From the NCBI GenBank assembly GCA_014436445.1, contig GCA_014436445.1_4089.1: a DNA stretch of 26,673 nucleotides; one strand, 5' to 3'. Source of the DNA: a phage. The position numbers were made by a program, and so were the translations under genes. The notes beneath the pieces are model-generated. The model saw only the letters and a list, made by a program, of their open reading frames with translations. It had not been told where the DNA came from and did no database searches. How positions within the stretch are numbered: the stretch's first letter is position 1; every line of letters begins with the position of its first letter. Positions 4,101 to 24,218 of the stretch are shown here, piece after piece.

Positions 4101-4321
4101 GATTTTATTCCTTATTGCCAGGGAGAACCGTTTCCCCCTCTCGATATAAAACATTATACTTGATTCTAAGTACAATGCAAGTACTTTTTATCAAATAGTT
4201 TTCAGTACTGAATACTTATATAATATATACATTTATGCACCCTGTGGGTCAGTGAGCTATCTCTCAATGAATATATAATAGCAAAGGGACTGACCGGAGT
4301 CAATCCCTTTTTTAATCTTTT

Positions 4322-7281: not shown

Positions 7282-7462
7282 TAAAACATTATACTTGATT
7301 CTAAGTACAATGCAAGTACTTTTTAAAAATAGTTTTCAGTACTTGATAGTACTAGCCACCAGCATATAATAGATACATTTATGCACCCTGTGGGCTGATT
7401 TGTTTCTATGCGTATATAATAGCAAAGGGACTGACCGGAGTCAATCCCTTTTTTAAATCTTT

Positions 7463-9366: not shown

Positions 9367-9461
9367 GATATTATATAGTTACATTTGTGCACCCTATGGG
9401 TTAGTGACGTTCTCGTCTTGATGTAAGTATTATGCTAGTACTGGCATAATTTGTCAATAGA

Positions 9462-9908: not shown

Positions 9909-10007
9909 TTTATTTCTCTCTTAGGTTAAGTTAACTACTGTTGATAAAAGTTATTATACAGTACTATCAAACATTGTCAATAGATTTAATAGTACTGGTA
10001 ATATATT

Positions 10008-10491: not shown

Positions 10492-10586
10492 TTTGTTTTC
10501 TCTCTCTGTTAGTGGGGAGAACTATTCTCCCCTTGATGTAAACTATTATACAGTACTAAAAACTATTGTCAAACTATTTTTTAATA

Positions 10587-10928
10587 TTATTCGAAATCTT
10601 CTGGACCGGACTGATAATCATCTTCACCGTATGCACTTTCTAACTTCTCGCCAGTATGATCATCAGTTAGTGAGTCATCCTCATAGTTCACGTCTACGCC
10701 CGTGATGTAAAACTGGCTATCGTCTGGATCATTGAAATTAATTTTCTGAATGTTTACAATAACTGTATTGATACCCAGGACACAGCCATCAGCCGTTACA
10801 AAGTACTGATATTTTTCACATCCACCACTATTGAAACCGTAATTGATTTCGGCCCGACCATCATTTAAACGCAGTGCCTGAGCGATGATTTCGTTTTCAA
10901 AGTTAGATTGAGCAATTGCAATAGTCAT
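10587..10928 (-). CDS. hypothetical protein with a strongly acidic C-terminal tail (113 aa)
   Basis: Track ORF; C-terminal ~40 residues are rich in D/E (YEDDSLTDDHTGEKLESAYGEDDYQSGPEDFE); leader hairpin and promoter at 10947-11010. Confidence 0.6.
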   Translation of the reverse strand: MTIAIAQSNFENEIIAQALRLNDGRAEINYGFNSGGCEKYQYFVTADGCVLGINTVIVNIQKINFNDPDDSQFYITGVDVNYEDDSLTDDHTGEKLESAYGEDDYQSGPEDFE

Positions 10929-11157
10929 GATTCGTTTCCTTATTACCAGGGGAAACCGTTTCCCCTTGCGATGTAAAACATTATACGCCTATTGAGATAG
11001 TATGCAAGTACTTTTTATCAAATACTTTAAAATAGTTTTCTGTACTCAATCATTATACAATAGATACACTCCTGCACCCTGTGGGCTAGTGAGCTATCTC
11101 TCAATGAATATATAATAGCAAAATGGCTGACCGAAGTCAACCACTTTTTCATTTATT

Positions 11158-14103: not shown

Positions 14104-14330
14104 CTTTATATCCTCAGTTAGTTAAGGTGTTTCGCCTTGATGTAAAACATTATACGCTAATCTCTGAATCGTGCAAGTACTTTTTATTACTTTTTGCAAA
14201 ATACTTTAAACGCTCTAAATCGCATTCTAACGACCTTAACTCCACCAGCTAGGGCGATGCATCAGATAATCAGTTTAATGCGTTAGAATCGATTCTATGA
14301 GGTGCTGACGGCATGGAATACTATAGACAC

Positions 14331-14355
14331 AAAAAAGCCCACTGTATAAGTGGGC
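14331..14355 (-). terminator. intrinsic terminator
   Basis: GCCCACTTATACAGTGGGC stem followed by TTTTTT on the minus strand, directly after the stop of 14378..14860. Confidence 0.6.
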
Positions 14356-14377
14356 TAGTGATTCAGTACTTTAATTG

Positions 14378-14860
14378 TTATGCTTCAACTTTGCGGTGAG
14401 CTTCGATCCATTCCTCGCGAGTCATACCGCTTTCTTTGATTGCATCCAGTACTACCGCAATGCAGTTACCGCGTACAGGAATCAAATGTTCTTCCCCGTT
14501 ATCAAGGACAACCGTAACACGTTCTTGAATCCATTTTTTAGGCTTAGATTCCGGCTTATCTTCACCGTACTTAACCGCCAGGGCTTTATGTGCCATTTCA
14601 ATCACCACTTCCAGATCTAAACCAGACACCGCCGCCTGAATACTTTCTATTGTTGCTTGCAGTTCTGCTTCACGGGCTTTTTTCTGTTCTTCCAGTTCTG
14701 CTACCTTTTTGGCTTGTAGTTCTTTCGCTTCACTGTAAGCAATGTTAAAATTGTTGCGTACTGCTTTCATGGTATCATTATCCAGGTCAGCCAGCAATTC
14801 AGCAGCAATAACAGTATCGTTAGAAATCAGTGCTTTCAGAAATGATTTTACATTAGCCAT
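14378..14860 (-). CDS. hypothetical protein with a central coiled-coil-like segment (160 aa)
   Basis: Track ORF trimmed to the ATG at 14860 (GAGGA Shine-Dalgarno); the central KELQAKKVAELEEQKKAREAELQATIESIQ segment is heptad-like; promoter TTGACA, 16 nt, TAGAAT at about 14965-15000. Confidence 0.6.
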   Translation of the reverse strand: MANVKSFLKALISNDTVIAAELLADLDNDTMKAVRNNFNIAYSEAKELQAKKVAELEEQKKAREAELQATIESIQAAVSGLDLEVVIEMAHKALAVKYGEDKPESKPKKWIQERVTVVLDNGEEHLIPVRGNCIAVVLDAIKESGMTREEWIEAHRKVEA

Positions 14861-15055
14861 TTTATAAATCCTCAATTAAAGTTTAAGTTAGTGTATCAAA
14901 GTTTTATTGACGTGTCCAGTTTTTCATTCGACTTACTGGCGGTCTACTTAGTGTTCCCCGTCTTGATGTAATACATTCTACGCTTTTCCCTGGTAATGTC
15001 AACTACTTTTTTAAAACTATTTTCAAAGTATACCAGTACTACAATACTACAAAAA

Positions 15056-15082
15056 CAAAAAAGCCCACTGCTTATAGTGGGC
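15056..15082 (-). terminator. intrinsic terminator
   Basis: GCCCACTATAAGCAGTGGGC stem followed by a T-run on the minus strand after the stop of 15104..15403. Confidence 0.6.
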
Positions 15083-15103
15083 TAGTGATTCAGTACTGAT
15101 GTA

Positions 15104-15403
15104 TTATAGACAGTTAATTACACCTGTGTGCGTTACTTTCTCCGTATCCATTACAGTGACAGAACCACGTTTAGCACTGGCATCATAATAAATTGTTGTG
15201 CTACCTTTATCATCTTCTTCATGGAACGGGCCATTTTTAAATGCTTCCGGCTGCAATTCCAGATCCTTTAAAACAATCTCGCCAGTACTTTCATCTGTCA
15301 TTGCTACGGTGCACTGAATGAATTTATCACCAGGTACATCTAACGACGCATTAACAGCGAAAGAGGAAACAGATAAAGCCAGGGCGATGATTGCAACTTT
15401 CAT
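15104..15403 (-). CDS. small secreted or periplasmic protein with a Sec signal peptide (99 aa)
   Basis: N-terminus MKVAIIALALSVSSFAVNA-S has a basic n-region, hydrophobic core and AxA-like cleavage site; two Cys in the mature part; leader hairpin and promoter at 15420-15480. Confidence 0.6.
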   Translation of the reverse strand: MKVAIIALALSVSSFAVNASLDVPGDKFIQCTVAMTDESTGEIVLKDLELQPEAFKNGPFHEEDDKGSTTIYYDASAKRGSVTVMDTEKVTHTGVINCL

Positions 15404-15516
15404 TTGATTATCCTTAGTTACCAGGGGAAACCGTTTCCCCGTGCGATGTAAAACATTATACGCGTTTAAAAACTATTATCAAGTACTTTAATATAAAAGT
15501 ATTTGAAAAAAAAGTC

Positions 15517-15545
15517 TTGACAACTGCATCCAGTACTGGCATAAT
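15517..15545 (+). promoter_or_regulatory. plus-strand sigma70-type promoter (TTGACA, 17 nt, CATAAT)
   Basis: Consensus -35, 17-nt spacer and CATAAT -10; no plus-strand ORF follows, only the CCCACAGGGTGCA leader motif and a hairpin. Confidence 0.5.
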
Positions 15546-15551
15546 ACTTAC

Positions 15552-15650
15552 ATAAAGACGAGATAGTCACTAACCCACAGGGTGCATAGATCCGTCTATT
15601 AAATGATTCAGTACAAAAAATATAAAGGGGATCAATTGATCCCCCTGGTT
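15552..15650 (+). ncRNA. candidate ~100-nt small RNA
   Basis: Predicted transcript from the 15517-15545 promoter, containing GAGATAGTCACTAACCCACAGGGTGCA and ending at the palindromic hairpin GGGGATCAATTGATCCCCC (15627-15645), which also terminates minus gene 15652..15873. Confidence 0.3.
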
Positions 15651-15651
15651 A

Positions 15652-15873
15652 TTACTTAGTAAGATATAAACAGAAGTCACCTTTATTTGCTACGCCGCCA
15701 GTGTAACGCGATGAATAGTTAGAAACGTCCTGGACTTCTGCTATTACCAGTGTATCATCATTCAATTCGTCGCAGAAGCAAACGGCTGGATCTTTTACGC
15801 CGATATTGTCGGCATGTTCCCGCATAGATTTAACCAGTGCTTCAAGTTGGGAAAGAGTAGTGATATTAGCCAT
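15652..15873 (-). CDS. hypothetical protein (73 aa)
   Basis: Track ORF 15652..15903 trimmed to the ATG at 15873 (GAGGAAAA Shine-Dalgarno) downstream of the leader hairpin at 15885-15906. Confidence 0.55.
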   Translation of the reverse strand: MANITTLSQLEALVKSMREHADNIGVKDPAVCFCDELNDDTLVIAEVQDVSNYSSRYTGGVANKGDFCLYLTK

Positions 15874-15958
15874 TTTATTTTCCTCATTACCAGGGAGAAC
15901 CATTTCCCCCTTGATGTAAACTATTATACAGTACTAAAAACTAATTGCAAGTACTTTT

Positions 15959-16162
15959 TTAATTTAATTGCTTTAAAACATACTCAAAGACACCACGCAC
16001 ATCATTGATCATCGCCTGGCGGTTAGCAGGTAACGCATCAGGATCGCCACTATCCCAGGCATTGATAAAACTCCCCAAATCATGATAGATTTTATTCTGT
16101 AAGCCGATCAACTGCAATTCTTTTTCTTCAAGCTCTTTGATACGTTCAATTAAATCACTCAT
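15959..16162 (-). CDS. hypothetical small protein (67 aa)
   Basis: Track ORF 15959..16198 trimmed to the ATG at 16162 (AAGGA Shine-Dalgarno), 17 nt after the stop of 16180..16461. Confidence 0.5.
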   Translation of the reverse strand: MSDLIERIKELEEKELQLIGLQNKIYHDLGSFINAWDSGDPDALPANRQAMINDVRGVFEYVLKQLN

Positions 16163-17597: not shown

Positions 17598-17752
17598 TAA
17601 AACATTATACGCCTTTAAACATAGTTGGCAAGTACTTTTTGAAAATAGTTTTTAGTACTTTCATATAGATACACTCCCGCACCCTATGGGCTATCGCCTA
17701 GTGTCCGGCTTGTAAGTATTATCTCACTAAGCCGGATAACTGTCAAGTACTT

Positions 17753-19116: not shown

Positions 19117-19144
19117 TTGACTCAGCACCGAAAAAGCGTATAAT
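19117..19144 (+). promoter_or_regulatory. plus-strand promoter (TTGACT, 16 nt, TATAAT)
   Basis: Consensus elements within the non-coding block; no ORF downstream. Confidence 0.45.
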
Positions 19145-19332
19145 TACTACATAGACGCGAGAAAGCGGATACCCCTGGGGGTGCGGAATTACGCCCAAAA
19201 TTCAGTAAATTTAAAAAGGATACACTCCCGCACCTTAGCAGGTCATAGCACTTTCTCAGTACTGAATCATAGTACCATAGTACGCCCCAGGATGGCAAGC
19301 AAATTAATTAAAACTTTTTGCGTTTAGGGTAT

Positions 19333-19360: not shown

Positions 19361-19457
19361 ATTTTCATCAAGTCGAGAAAGACTCTAGCCCACCGGGTGC
19401 ATAATTGTATCTAAAATTCAGTACTAGATTATTTTTTAAAATTATTCATCCAGGCGG

Positions 19458-19486: not shown

Positions 19487-19580
19487 GATTCCAGATTCAG
19501 AAAAATCTAACTCCAGATACTGCGGGGAAACCATCCCCACGCGGTAGGGGAACTATTGGAAAAACAAAATAAAATTTTGA

Positions 19581-19712
19581 TTTAGCCGTCTATACTTCCA
19601 GACGTGTAACCATCTAGCCGTTTAGCCGTCCAAACGTCTAGCAGTACAGCCATCTAGAAATCTAGCCATCCAGCCGCCTAGAGGGATAGCCATCTTTACT
19701 TCCAGCCATCTG
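19581..19712. repeat. iteron-like array of about 8 YAGCCRTC octamers with interspersed GTCTAG/CATCTAG
   Basis: TTTAGCCGTC occurs exactly twice (19581, 19621); TAGCCGTT, CAGCCATC, TAGCCATC (twice), CAGCCGCC and CAGCCATC follow within about 130 bp of non-coding DNA. Confidence 0.55.
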
Positions 19713-19881
19713 GAGGTCTAGACATCTCTACGTCTAAATTTAACCTAGGGTTACTACGCCCAAAATCCGTCAGTACTATACCATAGATCTATCTTTAAGA
19801 AGGGAGTATTCAGTACTCCCACAATAGCCCTCACTGTTACTGTAGGAGGATGAAGACTATCATGTAGTACTGAATACTGTT

Positions 19882-19911
19882 AGTGGATAATCCACCAGCT
19901 TGTGCTGGTGG
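19882..19911. promoter_or_regulatory. DnaA-box-like 9-mer inside palindrome TGGATAATCCA, followed by hairpin CCACCAGCTTGTGCTGGTGG
   Basis: AGTGGATAA matches the DnaA box (TGTGGATAA, the complement of TTATCCACA) at 8 of 9 positions; an 8-bp-stem hairpin lies immediately 3'. Confidence 0.3.
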
Positions 19912-20398
19912 CATAATGCGTTAGATTAATATCAGTACTGCTACCATTCTGTTAATAACAGTACTGTTCATATTACGAAAAAAGAGGTTATAAAAAGATG
20001 TACCACCCATAGGAGGAACTATCCTTTCAGTACTGTCTCACGACAGGAGGTAGAGTGAATGAATTGTTTGCGGCAACTCATCTCTCTATGTAGAACATTA
20101 TACAGTACTGAATCATAATGTCAATAGCTTTCTTTCATTATTCAGTACTGAAATCGTATAATCTGTATCGCTACAAAACTCATTATATCCCACAAATCCT
20201 ATATGTCCCAACGTAAATTTCAACTTTCGAAGATCCAACTTTTATTTCATAGGTACTCCAAAATTTTTAGGATCGAGATTTAGGATGGAGTACTAACCAA
20301 CTTTTTGCTGGAGCCTCAAGGGGTAATTGAATTTTACCCCGAAGGGTAAAGGGGTAATTGAAATTAAGGTGAAAGTAATAATTCAGTACTAATCATTG

Positions 20399-20628
20399 CG
20401 TGATTACTTTTGATTACATTTGATGTAATTTGCAAAATGGAAAAGGAGCTTGGAAACTACAAAGTACGGCAGACTTCCTCTGCCTACTTAGTGGCATATC
20501 AGTACTGCTACGTTCTTGATTAAACGTGAACATTCCTGTACTCTAGTACTCAATACTAATCACTACCGTGCGTATGAATGATTACATAAATGTTTATATA
20601 TGATTACTTATGACTACCTATGATTACG
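20399..20628. repeat. two clusters of helically phased (A)TGATTAC repeats (20399-20428 and 20578-20628)
   Basis: GATTAC at 20401 and 20411 plus GATGTAAT at 20421; ATGATTAC at 20578, 20601 and 20621 plus ATGACTAC at 20611, with 10-bp spacing in the second cluster. Confidence 0.5.
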
Positions 20629-20743
20629 GGGTTTAGCCTGGGGAGAATCCTAGTGATCGCATTTGTCCAGGCTGAATTTTAACATATGCAACATATGTTA
20701 AAGCCTGTATAATGCTTCCACTACGGAGCTTCCCCTAGCTATA

Positions 20744-20944
20744 TTACTTCCTATATATAATCATTAAGATATAGTAGTACTGATTGTACTGTACATTCTC
20801 TTTAATATTATAAGGGTCTATAGCAATCTCGGTACATCTGTTAAATGCATATCTATTAAATGCCAGTGGAATTATAGATCTAATCCATACTTGTTCATTT
20901 TCTTTTAGTTTACTTATATAGAATTCTTTATGTTCTTTATTCAT
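20744..20944 (-). CDS. small-protein paralog array, member 15 (66 aa)
   Basis: Track ORF; N-terminus MNKEHKEFY, central Cys motif (NRCTEIAI), C-terminus YYILMIIYRK. Confidence 0.6.
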   Translation of the reverse strand: MNKEHKEFYISKLKENEQVWIRSIIPLAFNRYAFNRCTEIAIDPYNIKENVQYNQYYYILMIIYRK

Positions 20945-20949
20945 ATTAG

Positions 20950-21135
20950 TTAGTGTCTGTATATAAGTAATAGTAAGAATACGTACTGCACATCTTCATC
21001 TTTAGTATTGAGTACTGTACGTATTGCGTCATTAAACAAGAATATAGTACTTGGGTCATGAGAATTTAAAGGGGTTCTGGGTACGGCATGTTTGTAGTTC
21101 CCTTTAACAAATTGTGTGTAGTATTCTCTATGCAT
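20950..21135 (-). CDS. small-protein paralog array, member 14 (61 aa)
   Basis: Track ORF; MHREYYTQF...LLLLIYRH. Confidence 0.6.
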   Translation of the reverse strand: MHREYYTQFVKGNYKHAVPRTPLNSHDPSTIFLFNDAIRTVLNTKDEDVQYVFLLLLIYRH

Positions 21136-21136
21136 A

Positions 21137-21322
21137 TTAGTACCTATATATTAGGGCGAGAATGTAGTACAATTCATATGGAATGTAATTTGGGGTGATC
21201 GCACACTGTGTATGGTAAATGAATTGTTCGGTATTTTTCTTATCCTTGATATCTATTGGGATTTGTGGTATAAGCATTTGGGAGTTTAGATCGAGATGGC
21301 TTAAGTAGAATTCTTTATGCAT
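21137..21322 (-). CDS. small-protein paralog array, member 13 (61 aa)
   Basis: Track ORF; MHKEFYLSHL...QCAI...YYILALIYRY. Confidence 0.6.
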   Translation of the reverse strand: MHKEFYLSHLDLNSQMLIPQIPIDIKDKKNTEQFIYHTQCAITPNYIPYELYYILALIYRY

Positions 21323-21331
21323 ATTGTTCTC

Positions 21332-21520
21332 TTAGAATACGAAAGCTAGGTACAGGGTATGATACAGTACTCGATGATAGCTGTCAAAATCTAGTATACA
21401 TGCTTTAGTGCACATAGTAAAGTACACTTTATCATTTTGTGCATTGATACCGCGAGGTTTATCTAATAGATTAGTTCTGAGGTACATTGGGAAATATTTT
21501 GTGTAGTATTCTTTATGCAT
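21332..21520 (-). CDS. small-protein paralog array, member 12 (62 aa)
   Basis: Track ORF 21332..21565 trimmed to the family-conserved start MHKEYYTKYF at 21520; ends ...YHTLYLAFVF. Confidence 0.6.
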   Translation of the reverse strand: MHKEYYTKYFPMYLRTNLLDKPRGINAQNDKVYFTMCTKACILDFDSYHRVLYHTLYLAFVF

Positions 21521-21521
21521 G

Positions 21522-21704
21522 TTAGTACCTGAATATAAGTAGGATAGTGTTATATAGCTGGTCATAACTACTACTATTTTCTATACTTCGTTCTATGCAG
21601 TTATTGAATCCCAGTACTGCCAAATCGTTATCCATAGGGACTTTATATCTGGCGTAGTGTTCAAAAATGCTGGGGAGAAATTGTGTGTAGTATTCTTTGT
21701 GCAT
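21522..21704 (-). CDS. small-protein paralog array, member 11 (60 aa)
   Basis: Track ORF; MHKEYYTQFLP...NNCIERSI...ILLIFRY. Confidence 0.6.
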   Translation of the reverse strand: MHKEYYTQFLPSIFEHYARYKVPMDNDLAVLGFNNCIERSIENSSSYDQLYNTILLIFRY

Positions 21705-21705
21705 A

Positions 21706-21891
21706 TTAGTACCTATATATTAGTAAAAGGATGTGATACAGTACTCGATTATAGTCGTCAATATATATCGAGGATTTAGTGCACTGAATGAAGTAGTCTT
21801 TTTCGTAGTTTTTTTCTATACCCAATGGTTCTGTTGGTACAAGGTGTTGGAGATACATTGGGAGTTTCTCTATGTAGTATTCTTTATACAT
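21706..21891 (-). CDS. small-protein paralog array, member 10 (61 aa)
   Basis: Track ORF; MYKEYYIEKLPMYLQ...QCTKSSI...YHILLLIYRY. Confidence 0.6.
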   Translation of the reverse strand: MYKEYYIEKLPMYLQHLVPTEPLGIEKNYEKDYFIQCTKSSIYIDDYNRVLYHILLLIYRY

Positions 21892-21900
21892 ATATTATCC

Positions 21901-22101
21901 TTAGTACTGGAACGCAAGGTACAGGGTGTGGTAAAGTTGTACTTGATAATTGTTTTCATTAGCTTCTTCATTAAGTACTTGTTCAGTACATGTACGGAAG
22001 TAATCAGCTTCATATATACAGTCAATACCGCGAGGTTCATCTTCTAATAGATTTCCTTGTAGAAACTTTGGTAGTTCTTTTATGTAGAATTCTTTATACA
22101 T
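21901..22101 (-). CDS. small-protein paralog array, member 9 (66 aa)
   Basis: Track ORF 21901..22164 trimmed to the family-conserved start MYKEFYIKELPKFLQ at 22101; ...RTCTEQVL...YHTLYLAFQY. Confidence 0.6.
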   Translation of the reverse strand: MYKEFYIKELPKFLQGNLLEDEPRGIDCIYEADYFRTCTEQVLNEEANENNYQVQLYHTLYLAFQY

Positions 22102-22765
22102 AGTTTGTAATATACGTAATGAGGTGATGCATTTTCTTATCAGTACTGATAATTTCCTGTACATGTTTTGTCAGATTGTACGCGTTTTTATAGAGTACTG
22201 GATTATCGATTACAGTACTGTACATGAATAGTTCTTCTTCCTGTAGTTCTTTGTGTTCTAGTTCTTTGAGGAATTGTAGTACTGTATCAGTTTCTTCTGT
22301 ACGTTGTGCTTGCCAGAAGTGCATATTCTCGTGTACTTTTTCTGCATCAGTAGAGTATATGCCACCCATTTGGAATTGTGCTGTATTGACATCGTGGGAG
22401 GTGTTACAATTCCCGAAGAAGTATGTATTCCCGAAGTATAGCATTAAAGTGCACGGGGTATTATCCAACTGCATATTGATGATGAAGGATGCGTTCTTTA
22501 GTACCTTTGTGCTCGTATTAGTACTCAATACTTTTAAATCAGTATTATAGATATTCATATAATGAACAGCTATATTATTTTTCTTCATGTACAATTCAAG
22601 GTTCTTTGATACGTTAACTCCATTTGTACTGGATTTTTCCTTTTTATTTCGTTTCTTTAGTACATTCGGGTGATACGTATATGCAGATGTAACTGATTCT
22701 GCCTGAATACTATTGAGGTACTTAAAGTGCTTAAGGTATTGTTTGCTGTGTGCATTAAGTTTCAT
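22094..22765 (-). CDS. 223-aa protein with an HExxH motif, embedded in the paralog array
   Basis: Track ORF; AAGGAAA Shine-Dalgarno; contains AEKVHENMHFWQA (HExxH, the zincin metallopeptidase signature); does not share the array-family termini. Confidence 0.55.
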   Translation of the reverse strand: MKLNAHSKQYLKHFKYLNSIQAESVTSAYTYHPNVLKKRNKKEKSSTNGVNVSKNLELYMKKNNIAVHYMNIYNTDLKVLSTNTSTKVLKNASFIINMQLDNTPCTLMLYFGNTYFFGNCNTSHDVNTAQFQMGGIYSTDAEKVHENMHFWQAQRTEETDTVLQFLKELEHKELQEEELFMYSTVIDNPVLYKNAYNLTKHVQEIISTDKKMHHLITYITNYV

Positions 22766-22775
22766 TTGGTTTCCT

Positions 22776-22955
22776 TTATATAGATGCCAGGGCGAGGATT
22801 TCCCTGTAGGGATTATCTTGTGTTAGTACAGCATAAATGCAGTTATTGAGATTAATATTTTTAGTACTTTTTGTTCCTAGTTTGTAGTACTTCACGAAGG
22901 TGTCGTACATGAAACGGTCTTTTATGGTTATACGTTCTCTATAGAATTGTTGCAT
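22776..22955 (-). CDS. small-protein paralog array, member 7 (59 aa; MQQFYRERITIKDRFMYDTFVKYYKLGTKSTKNINLNNCIYAVLTQDNPYREILALASI)
   Basis: Not in the track (59 aa). AAGGAA Shine-Dalgarno; central NNCIYAVL and C-terminal ILALASI fit the family. Confidence 0.5.
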   Translation of the reverse strand: MQQFYRERITIKDRFMYDTFVKYYKLGTKSTKNINLNNCIYAVLTQDNPYREILALASI

Positions 22956-22963
22956 AGTATTCC

Positions 22964-23146
22964 TTAAATAGCGATTAGTTTCATTACTTCTCTGTATGTG
23001 TACTTTTCGTTTTGTGCATCTCTTGTGACGACATATAGGAAGGTGTGTTTATCTTTTTTGTTCCCGCAATTGTAGAAAATATTGAACTTATTGAAGTTGA
23101 ATCTTTCGGCGTGTTGTAGTTTAGTTAAATAGAATTCTATATTCAT
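22964..23146 (-). CDS. small-protein paralog array, member 6 (60 aa)
   Basis: Track ORF; MNIEFYLTKL...YNCGN...MKLIAI. Confidence 0.55.
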   Translation of the reverse strand: MNIEFYLTKLQHAERFNFNKFNIFYNCGNKKDKHTFLYVVTRDAQNEKYTYREVMKLIAI

Positions 23147-23154
23147 TTTCTTCC

Positions 23155-23340
23155 TTACATTTCAATAAGTTTAAGTACTGCTCGGTACGTGTACTTAGTT
23201 GTTAGTGCTTCTTTAATAGAAATACAGAAGTAATGTTGTTTGTCTCTTATACTGCCGCGTTTGTAGTACCACACATGGGAGTTGTGACTGTACTTGTCTC
23301 TGTCGGATAGTTGTTGGTAGTAGTAGCTTATATGATTCAT
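23155..23340 (-). CDS. small-protein paralog array, member 5 (61 aa)
   Basis: Track ORF; MNHISYYYQQL...FCISIKEAL...LKLIEM. Confidence 0.55.
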   Translation of the reverse strand: MNHISYYYQQLSDRDKYSHNSHVWYYKRGSIRDKQHYFCISIKEALTTKYTYRAVLKLIEM

Positions 23341-23392
23341 TATAATGTAATTAGCCTTACTATATTAAAGTACTCGGTCCCTGGTGTACCTT

Positions 23393-23587
23393 TTAGAACT
23401 TAAAGATGAGGTTCAGGATAGAGCGGTACTTAGTTGCAGGGAACGTATGTTCTATTGCATAACGTGTCACCATCCTGAAATCGTAATTATAATACAGATT
23501 ATCCTTTCTCATAGGTGGTGCTAAAGAGAATGATAGCTGTTCTTGTTTGGGTAGTTTACTACAATAGAAATCTTTATGATTATTCAT
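23393..23587 (-). CDS. small-protein paralog array, member 4 (64 aa)
   Basis: Track ORF; MNNHKDFYCSKLPKQEQ...ILNLIFKF. Confidence 0.55.
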   Translation of the reverse strand: MNNHKDFYCSKLPKQEQLSFSLAPPMRKDNLYYNYDFRMVTRYAIEHTFPATKYRSILNLIFKF

Positions 23588-23789
23588 AGAAATATATTAG
23601 TCCTATTAAACCAGAGTACATAATATTTTTGTTATTACATTCGATTGCTTCTAGAGTACTACGTATACAATTATTAAAGCAATCTCTGGCGTGTGGTGTA
23701 TCTATACTTAAAGGTGATACACTCCTTAGAAACAATTGTTCTTCGTTGCTAAGGTATTTGGTGTAGAATTCTTTATGTTCAGTATTCAT
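23580..23789 (-). CDS. small-protein paralog array, member 3 (69 aa)
   Basis: Track ORF; MNTEHKEFYTKYLSNEEQ...NNCIRSTL...LIGLIYFYE; 8-nt overlap with member 4. Confidence 0.6.
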   Translation of the reverse strand: MNTEHKEFYTKYLSNEEQLFLRSVSPLSIDTPHARDCFNNCIRSTLEAIECNNKNIMYSGLIGLIYFYE

Positions 23790-23790
23790 A

Positions 23791-23994
23791 TTAGTACTCG
23801 ATTAAAAGGGCAAGGATATAATAGTATTGCATACTTTCTGCCCCTTGTAAAGCATTTCTTATGATATTATTCCTGTACGAGTTCAGGAGTTTAGGACAAC
23901 GTTTGTAGTGTATAATAGTATTTTGTGTATACAGTAGGCTTTCTCGTAGACCTTTTGTTGGTAGTGCATCGATGTAGTACTGTTCGATATTCAT
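23791..23994 (-). CDS. small-protein paralog array, member 2 (67 aa)
   Basis: Track ORF; MNIEQYYIDALP...YYILALLIEY. Confidence 0.6.
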   Translation of the reverse strand: MNIEQYYIDALPTKGLRESLLYTQNTIIHYKRCPKLLNSYRNNIIRNALQGAESMQYYYILALLIEY

Positions 23995-24218
23995 ATAGAT
24001 AGCAGTACTAAGATTTTTGATAATTGTTTATTGCTATCCCCGCAGATGTTGCTGTGTAAAATACTCACAATGAGGGTATCAATTGCATTGTTCATCATAA
24101 GGGTGCATCCTGGACTATTATAATTTTTTAGCTCAATTAGCCACGAACTATCCGAGAGAAACTCCCCGTACTCTAGTTCATTTAGAGTATTGAGGTAGTA
24201 CTTAAGAGTATTTGTCAT
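23991..24218 (-). CDS. small-protein paralog array, member 1 (75 aa), first gene after the array promoter
   Basis: Track ORF; AAGGAG Shine-Dalgarno; MTNTLKYYLNTL...PGCTLMMNNAI...ILVLLSI. Confidence 0.55.
   Translation of the reverse strand: MTNTLKYYLNTLNELEYGEFLSDSSWLIELKNYNSPGCTLMMNNAIDTLIVSILHSNICGDSNKQLSKILVLLSI

Follow-up and report, generated by a model that had tools for sequence, protein, structure and literature searches.

A reversed promoter in the early-gene region of an Asteriusvirus-like phage carries a member of a conserved leader-RNA family and probably yields a short noncoding RNA

The DNA analysed here, a stretch of 26,673 nucleotides that we refer to as the window, comes from an Asteriusvirus-like jumbo phage: sequence comparison shows 94% identity to Escherichia phage 121Q and 85 to 90% identity to other Asteriusvirus jumbo phages. 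The subject of this report is the interval 15517–15650, which is an unannotated gap in related Asteriusvirus records, where the surrounding region carries small hypothetical genes only and sits within the direct terminal repeat. In the CBB genome, RpoD-like early promoters with UP-like elements are reported to cluster among short early genes, and three more to lie on the terminal repeat (PMC5259590). No tRNA or tmRNA was detected in a scan of the window. Its distal part has several peculiarities of its own. The stretch 19500–20740 (about 1.2 kb) holds a single open reading frame of at least 40 aa (20113–20238) and short tandem repeats, of the CTAGCC/CCAGCC type at 19647–19736 and of TGATTAC at 20401–20627; judging by the offset from the Muenster record, it could be close to the physical genome end or to the terminal-repeat boundary. 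Positions 20744–24218 contain a series of minus-strand open reading frames of about 60 aa with internal repeats, and GC skew flips sign at about 21000 while the strand of the open reading frames stays constant.

The interval is flanked by two minus-strand genes, each with its own promoter and ribosome-binding site: 15104–15403, identified from the list of open reading frames and the annotation of relatives, and 15652–15903, which encodes 83 aa and has an annotated homolog in 121Q. The first-pass annotation had placed a consensus promoter here, pointing the opposite way to all neighboring genes, and this description was correct. The sigma-70-type promoter on the plus strand (15517–15545) consists of TTGACA (15517–15522), a 17-nt spacer, and CATAAT (15540–15545), for 11 of 12 consensus matches in a promoter scan, and a TG at 15537–15538 makes an extended -10 element. 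Only three plus-strand sites between positions 10000 and 21000 score at least 11/12 (at 15517, 19117, and 19458). Across the 10 aligned orthologous sequences, TTGAC and CAGTACTGGCATAAT are invariant. An A/T-rich, UP-element-like tract upstream of the -35 element (15500–15516, plus strand; GAAAAA-rich in orthologs) is common to this promoter and to the back-to-back minus-strand promoter of gene 15104–15403 (TTGATA-16-TATAAT, 15455–15482). The two promoters thus form a divergent pair, with 35 bp between the minus-strand -35 element and the plus-strand -35 element at 15517. From the spacing, plus-strand transcription is predicted to start at position 15552, the A of a CAT that is located 7 nt past the -10 element and is conserved in most members of the leader family described below.

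The spacer of this promoter contains the palindromic octamer CAGTACTG at 15531–15538. There are 34 copies of the octamer in the window versus 0.44 expected (other examples are at 4203–4210 and 20103–20110); they lie in promoter spacers, immediately upstream of the -10 element, and may be factor-binding or DNA-modification sites. The string AGTAC recurs immediately upstream of -35 elements and also within leaders. The ordinary gene promoters of the window (about 28 sites, e.g., 15893–15960 and 10515–10591) make up a second repeat family with a layout of TTGCAA or TTGACA, 16 nt, and TATAAT, followed by a 5' hairpin, GGGGAGAAC..TTCTCCCC, and a ribosome-binding site.

Downstream of the predicted start, the unit consists of a conserved, structured leader domain (15552–15602), an A/U-rich linker (15603–15626), and a GC-rich hairpin (15625–15646). 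Alignment of orthologs revealed a degenerate TTCAGTAC box in the linker (15607–15614) at the place where the orthologs have the full palindrome TTCAGTACTGAA. The hairpin, about 75 nt past the start, contains the perfect palindrome GGGGATCAATTGATCCCC (15627–15644) and is terminator-like on both strands in a terminator scan, and the G17 and Muenster records list it as a terminator. Termination in both directions, as had been proposed from the palindrome, is nevertheless likely to be unequal. On the minus strand, a stem of 9 bp (-14.5 kcal/mol) precedes UUUAUAUUUUUU, whereas on the plus strand the stem has 7 bp (-12.7 kcal/mol) and is followed by a poorer U-tract, CUGGUUAUUACUU. The plus-strand U-tract is also poor in 121Q and Muenster, whereas it is good in RaK2, G17, and EJP2. 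By its predicted properties, then, the hairpin is mainly the canonical intrinsic terminator of gene 15652–15903, whose stop codon (15652–15654) is 6 nt away, and would be a weaker one for the plus-strand RNA; much plus-strand transcription may run on into this convergent gene. Because the plus-strand U-tract is weak, where the RNA ends, and hence its length of about 100 nt, is inferred from the combination of promoter and terminator. The RNA predicted in this way (15552–15655) has a minimum free energy of -26.7 kcal/mol (z = -2.6).

The claim that the unit contains no open reading frame was also confirmed. A small open reading frame in the transcript was considered and rejected: the sole plus-strand ATG (15603) opens a frame of 18 codons that is not preceded by a Shine-Dalgarno sequence, and in the aligned orthologs this frame shrinks to 11 codons in 121Q and 4 codons in G17 and is absent from RaK2. 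With respect to known RNA families, Rfam returned no match at the gathering score in the window and none at any leader copy at E ≤ 5. Two sub-threshold matches to Trp_leader on the minus strand (14329–14393 and 15055–15144; 29 and 22 bits versus a gathering score of 41) overlie two near-identical terminators, AGCCCACT..AGTGGGCT, and most likely reflect mere resemblance to a terminator.

The leader domain is not confined to this unit. Its first 27-mer description, as a conserved sequence behind the promoter, was right as to conservation: allowing three mismatches, the window holds one further match to the 27-mer (9388–9414, minus strand) versus 0 expected by chance, and the leader core CCCAYAGGGTGC occurs eight times versus 0.06 expected, in every case about 20 to 30 nt downstream of its own strong promoter. 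However, the leader is a multi-copy module that mostly heads mRNAs or faces a second copy, and therefore its conservation is not evidence for a unique base-pairing small RNA. We gathered further jumbo-phage loci by a pattern scan of viral contigs and built a covariance model (R1) from 17 copies. With filters off, the model detected eight copies in the window, with E values from 4e-15 to 2e-5, and 52 matches in 14 sources; these copies, too, sit behind their own strong promoters. It also gave one match in Serratia phage BF. The leader domain of the 15552 unit scored 65.9 bits (E = 4e-15). Its closest paralog within the window is the minus-strand copy at 9372–9422, to which it is related as an inverted repeat of 99 nt with 78% complementarity. 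On the minus strand, the copies at 4220–4270, 7366–7411, and 11057–11107 each have a second promoter and then a gene downstream; the copy at 1966–2005 (36.6 bits), likewise co-directional with genes, belongs to a short class with a reduced P1 stem (described below), and the one at 17662–17713 lacks the convergent partner that is present in its 121Q counterpart. A second plus-strand copy (19367–19417, 58.8 bits) lies at the edge of the gene-poor region. By eye, we also recognized a diverged ninth copy at 19151–19196 on the plus strand, behind the promoter at 19117–19144, with the stems P1 CGC/GCG, P2 ACCC-CUGG-GGGU, and P3 GGGUG/CGCCC; the model did not detect it at E ≤ 1.

The copies of the family occur in four contexts. 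Stand-alone copies comprise a promoter, the leader, a 20- to 25-nt A/U-rich linker, and a GC-rich terminator hairpin, 85 to 105 nt in all; they are antisense to the surrounding open reading frames and tail-to-tail with a gene end. The 15552 unit belongs here, together with at least 10 further copies that have a GC-rich hairpin 20 to 25 nt past the domain and are antisense to local open reading frames. Most copies in the window instead point the same way as the genes, and downstream of them come a second promoter, a 5' hairpin, and a gene. Others form convergent pairs with about 45 nt separating the cores (in 121Q, G17, and metagenomic relatives), and at two loci the leader directly forms the 5' untranslated region of a gene. 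Thus, most family copies head mRNAs, and the 15552 copy is the stand-alone form. Copies within one genome are up to 95 to 99% identical, and part of the conservation of the family may reflect gene conversion and not selection.

Several features of individual copies are worth recording. In co-directional copies on the minus strand (11120–11147 and about 2010–2045, 4275–4310, and 7415–7450), the -35 element TTGACT lies inside the GC-rich hairpin GGGATTGACTCCGGTCAGTCCC, the T-tract of which runs into the -10 element, so that a single element is both terminator and promoter. An inverted repeat of 7 to 9 bp brackets the -10 element and the start in the minus-strand copy at 17718–17746 with 17705–17712 and in copies at loci L006, L007, L018, and L021 (e.g., CCGGCTT..AAGCCGG and CTGCCAATG..CATTGGCAG); its arms change compensatorily among copies, and it could sequester P1 in read-through transcripts. 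At locus L008 (2122–2658), a gene for a 178-aa basic protein was found behind a leader. We discarded this protein as a candidate N-like regulator: it has no Pfam domain, bears a virion-structural-protein annotation throughout the clade, is missing from the window, and is encoded without a leader in 121Q, RaK2, BF, and Yen9-04. At 19210–19237, an apparent minus-strand leader fragment, GGATACACTCCCGCACC, is fused to a piece resembling the start of the clade's gene for this virion protein (GATLAGHS), which is probably a recombination scar. Resemblances to a CRP site, RfaH ops, boxA, and a CRISPR repeat, checked by eye on the alignment of the copies, were dropped as partial matches in single copies only.

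The RNA fold of the family is built from two hairpins. P1 (15557–15568) pairs GAC (15557–15559) with GUC (15566–15568) around the loop GAGAUA, upstream of the core; P2 (15573–15583) has the form ACCC-ACA-GGGU. The stem sequence of P1 varies freely, while its loop is purine-rich and 6 to 8 nt long. The stems that we observed include GAC/GUC, the flipped GUC/GAC (in the window copy at 19367), GCC/GGC (in the RaK2 orthologs), UGAG/CUCA, UGGC/GCCA, GGAG/CUCC, AGCA/UGCU, ACCAC/GUGGU, ACAAA/UUUGU, AGACG/CGUCU, and CCG/CGG. At the set threshold, a P1 hairpin was present in 69% of all 51 copies defined by a regular expression versus 27% (maximum 41%) in mononucleotide shuffles, and it is missing or reduced in about one-third of the copies. 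P2 behaves differently: its 4-bp stem is near-invariant and its 3-nt loop variable (consensus RCCC-AYR-GGGU), it is found unaided by RNAalifold, and 99.5% of its alignment cells are paired. Because P2 varies so little, its pairing support consists of one copy with a double change from C-G to U-A and of the alternation at the closing pair, which is A-U in 30 sequences and G·U in 16 of 47. For P1 and P2 together, 94% of cells are paired versus 16 to 53% with slid partners, five pairs show two-sided changes, and none of 500 shuffles reached the covariation score; these figures come from alignments that favor structure, as presence of P1 was the criterion for choosing the seed sequences, and the alignment of 52 sequences was made by fitting to the model. 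G·U pairs are common in the fold, with eight in P1 in addition to those that close P2. Read from the opposite strand, a G·U pair becomes an A·C mismatch, which assigns the fold to RNA of the promoter sense; it is, on this reasoning, not a DNA palindrome and would not form in transcripts that read through from the other strand.

A third helix, P3, is possible between GGGUGC (15580–15585) and CCGUCU (15592–15597); it excludes P2 and could compete with it as an alternative helix. The 3' hexamer, located 6 nt downstream of GGGUGC, is GUAUCU, CCGUCU, GCGUCC, or GUACCU in different copies, and 89% of cells are paired in register versus 31 to 66% when slid, with all one-sided changes wobble-compatible. 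The 5' arm is invariant and the shuffle control is therefore uninformative for P3, so that these counts hint at the helix but lend it weak support. Two further helices were abandoned as features of the family: when the 15552 copy is folded as a single sequence, the long-range closing stem AGACG/CGUCU is dominant, but it is not conserved in paralogs sharing P1, and a hairpin in ATAGA..TCTAT is found in a few copies only.

The conservation of the unit extends beyond its leader domain. Orthologs of 15517–15650 were found in 121Q, G17, EJP2, PBECO4, SP27, and CMSTMSU and in the Klebsiella phages RaK2, Muenster, and KP13-7, so that the anatomy is kept in at least nine other phages from two genera, and the core is invariant across 10 sequences. 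Among these orthologs, P1 shifts from GAC/GUC to GCC/GGC, and GGGGAUC in the terminator stem is replaced by GGGGAG(U), with a matching change in the opposite arm (GGGGAG..CUCCCC in G17, SP27, and EJP2). In RaK2-type phages, the whole unit including the terminator is about 76% identical. The proteins encoded on either side of it in RaK2 are unrelated to those in the window, and yet the unit once more points against its neighbors and abuts a gene end. That a reversed unit is kept between unrelated genes indicates that the whole cassette, terminator included, is the conserved entity and speaks against the unit being left over from a chance inversion. In G17, where we checked this arrangement, the edge of the cassette is the exact site at which a small gene has been inserted; two-piece matches of similar span suggest the same insertion in PBECO4 and others. 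A stringent pattern scan of 185,579 bacterial and archaeal species genomes gave 0 matches, whereas the same pattern matched eight metagenome stretches, four of which are on contigs of 360 to 366 kb. The literature search returned no mention of the motif and no expression data for the RaK2-like phage group.

Taken together, the comparisons indicate that the unit is a real conserved RNA unit and a member of a previously undescribed RNA family scattered through the early-gene region of RaK2-like giant phages; the reverse promoter is real and probably yields a noncoding RNA of about 100 bases. The original suggestion of a small RNA gene thus survives in part. On the one hand, the unit has its own promoter, no conserved open reading frame, and a sequence and structure conserved beyond the flanking genes, with covariation, all of which match an independent small RNA gene. 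On the other hand, its leader is not unique and its terminator is weak on the plus strand. Our preferred reading, which we hold tentatively and with somewhat less than even confidence, is that the unit is a self-contained early cassette producing a folded noncoding RNA of about 100 nt, the free form of the leader-RNA family, which would act in trans as a protein handle. Host sigma-70 RNA polymerase would start at about 15552, transcribe the folded 5' domain (P1, P2, and the hexamer able to form the competing P3) and then the A/U-rich linker, and terminate, at least in part, at the hairpin that also serves the convergent gene 15652–15903; the RNA would be made early in infection. As all copies share the folded 5' domain and not a variable seed, the RNA may be expected to work through this domain, as a handle for a host or phage protein; stand-alone copies would then supply free RNA that titrates or regulates a factor also acting on the leader-bearing mRNAs.

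Other explanations assign the function, if any, to the DNA arrangement. The reverse promoter might be an insulator that fires into the terminator of 15652–15903, with colliding polymerases shielding the promoter at 15482–15455 and the RNA arising as a by-product; the back-to-back placement may also stimulate that promoter through supercoiling. In its favor, the stand-alone copies meet a gene end tail-to-tail and run antisense to the local genes, convergent module pairs recur in 121Q, G17, and metagenomic relatives, and the -35 elements of the divergent promoters are only 35 bp apart. However, collision needs a promoter only and leaves the covarying P1, the strand-specific G·U pairs, and the conserved linker and P2 unexplained, and the minus-strand terminator is already canonical; we consider an insulator unlikely. 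Nor does it seem probable that the unit is a functionless relic of a mobile promoter cassette, one copy of which was flipped by recombination among dispersed promoter/terminator cassettes. The copies do act as cassettes that are shuffled: there are long near-identical repeats in the window, and small-gene insertion exactly at the cassette edge is seen in G17 and, from two-piece matches, apparently in PBECO4 and others, a pattern that matches the one described for PeSL elements (PMC4122927). Yet two genera share the reversed arrangement although the genes around it are unrelated, the promoter is invariant, compensatory changes are seen, and relatives carry several independent stand-alone copies per genome, which makes a relic a very doubtful explanation.

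The leader itself could also work in cis. A nut/put-type antitermination leader, in which the folded RNA, alone or with a phage protein, makes polymerase terminator-resistant, would let co-directional copies drive read-through of the many terminators between small genes, and the reversed copy would give timed antisense read-through that silences upstream early genes. The position of the module, immediately downstream of strong early promoters and in a block rich in terminators, the layout of a hairpin followed by a conserved single-stranded motif, a plus-strand terminator weak enough to permit read-through, and a P2/P3 alternative that could serve as a switch all suit such a role. What argues against it is the detail: the boxA consensus CGCTCTT(T)A is absent from the alignment, where the nearest strings are CCGTCTATTAA (in this copy) and GTATCTATTA; P2, with its 4-bp stem and 3-nt loop, is unlike boxB, which has a 5-bp stem and a purine-rich pentaloop; many copies directly precede a strong terminator or are paired face to face, an arrangement hard to reconcile with constitutive antitermination; and the only arginine-rich protein whose gene was found immediately after a leader is the virion protein mentioned above, its gene leaderless in four phages. 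We therefore regard antitermination as improbable, to about the same degree as the relic. Least probable of all, in our estimate, is a DNA operator, in which a dimeric regulator would bind the palindrome ACCCNNNGGGT at +22 to +32 and block elongation from this class of promoter. A near-invariant P2 stem with a variable loop would fit two half-sites and a spacer, but the outer pair alternates between A-T and G·T, which is non-palindromic in DNA, one copy has a compensatory change at an inner pair, and P1 varies freely in sequence while its pairing is kept.

The preferred reading, a free folded RNA acting through a protein, can be extended to the family as a whole, and we offer this extension as a speculation that is more likely wrong than right by a wide measure. 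The family might constitute a class of regulatory RNAs new to phages and equipped with a P2/P3 switch, in which the leader programs host RNA polymerase or recruits an RNA-binding protein of host or phage, free 100-nt RNA titrates the factor, and convergent pairs make an anti-leader RNA able to pair with all other copies; this RNA-based circuit would time early expression in RaK2-like jumbo phages and, in some relatives, would be coupled to host iron status. Iron coupling is proposed because a Fur-box-like palindrome sits between convergent copies in some relatives. Perfect matches to the Fur-box core AATGATWATCATT occur in L006 (2825–2837 and 8083–8095), L021 (6094–6106), and L010 (915–927 and 961–973); they are centered in the convergent leader pairs of L006 and L021, whereas those in L010 lie about 300 nt outside its pair. 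The window has only matches with two mismatches, none of them at any leader copy.

RaK2-like jumbo phages include large coliphages and Klebsiella phages of therapeutic interest, and their early gene control is essentially unstudied. With about eight copies per 26 kb and conservation across Escherichia, Klebsiella, Salmonella, Cronobacter-like, and Serratia phages, the module offers a concrete, testable handle on early transcription and is a candidate addition to the small catalogue of phage noncoding RNAs. Should a host factor prove to be its binding partner, a new mechanism of host takeover could come to light.

Among known systems, one is found in the jumbo phage PA5oct, a distant relative of the 121Q/RaK2 clade, in which two noncoding RNAs of the terminal repeat, ncRNA1 and ncRNA2, are highly transcribed; they are 236 to 451 nt long and have no reported promoter (PMC7318152). 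The location in the terminal-repeat or early region is a likeness, whereas the predicted RNA of the window is about 100 nt long with its own promoter; PA5oct shows no nucleotide similarity to the unit and is absent from the matches to it. The PeSL (promoter-early stem-loop) cassettes of T4-type phages combine a terminator with a promoter (Arbiol 2010, PMC2839356; Comeau 2014, PMC4122927). Like them, the family described here joins dispersed near-consensus sigma-70 early promoters to stem-loops or terminators, is concentrated among small variable open reading frames, with indels between related phages at cassette edges, and includes several window copies with the -35 element inside a terminator-like hairpin (e.g., 11147–11120). 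It differs in that a structured RNA domain of 50 nt follows the promoter, while no conserved transcribed leader fold has been described for PeSLs, and in its phages, as the window matches Asteriusvirus and RaK2-like jumbo phages and not the T4 type (Tquatrovirinae). The 15552 copy departs further, being reversed and ending at a terminator, with its hairpin about 75 nt downstream of the start, whereas the hairpin of the co-directional copies is over the -35 element.

The nut sites of lambda and the put sites of HK022 are leader RNAs. The family resembles them as a hairpin-containing RNA element immediately downstream of early promoters, but it has neither a boxA nor a boxB consensus, its hairpin geometry is different, and many of its copies lie directly before a terminator. 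OOP RNA of lambda, 77 nt long and transcribed against the rightward operon, works by antisense pairing; its sequence overlaps that of cII at the 3' end of the coding region. The predicted RNA of the 15552 unit resembles OOP in being a short phage RNA with its own promoter (constitutive in OOP), opposite to the neighboring genes, and with a putative intrinsic terminator at its end. However, if terminated, it would overlap only the shared hairpin at 15625–15646, short of the stop codon of the convergent gene at 15652–15654, and the conserved part of the window family is a fold that is repeated in many sense-oriented copies.
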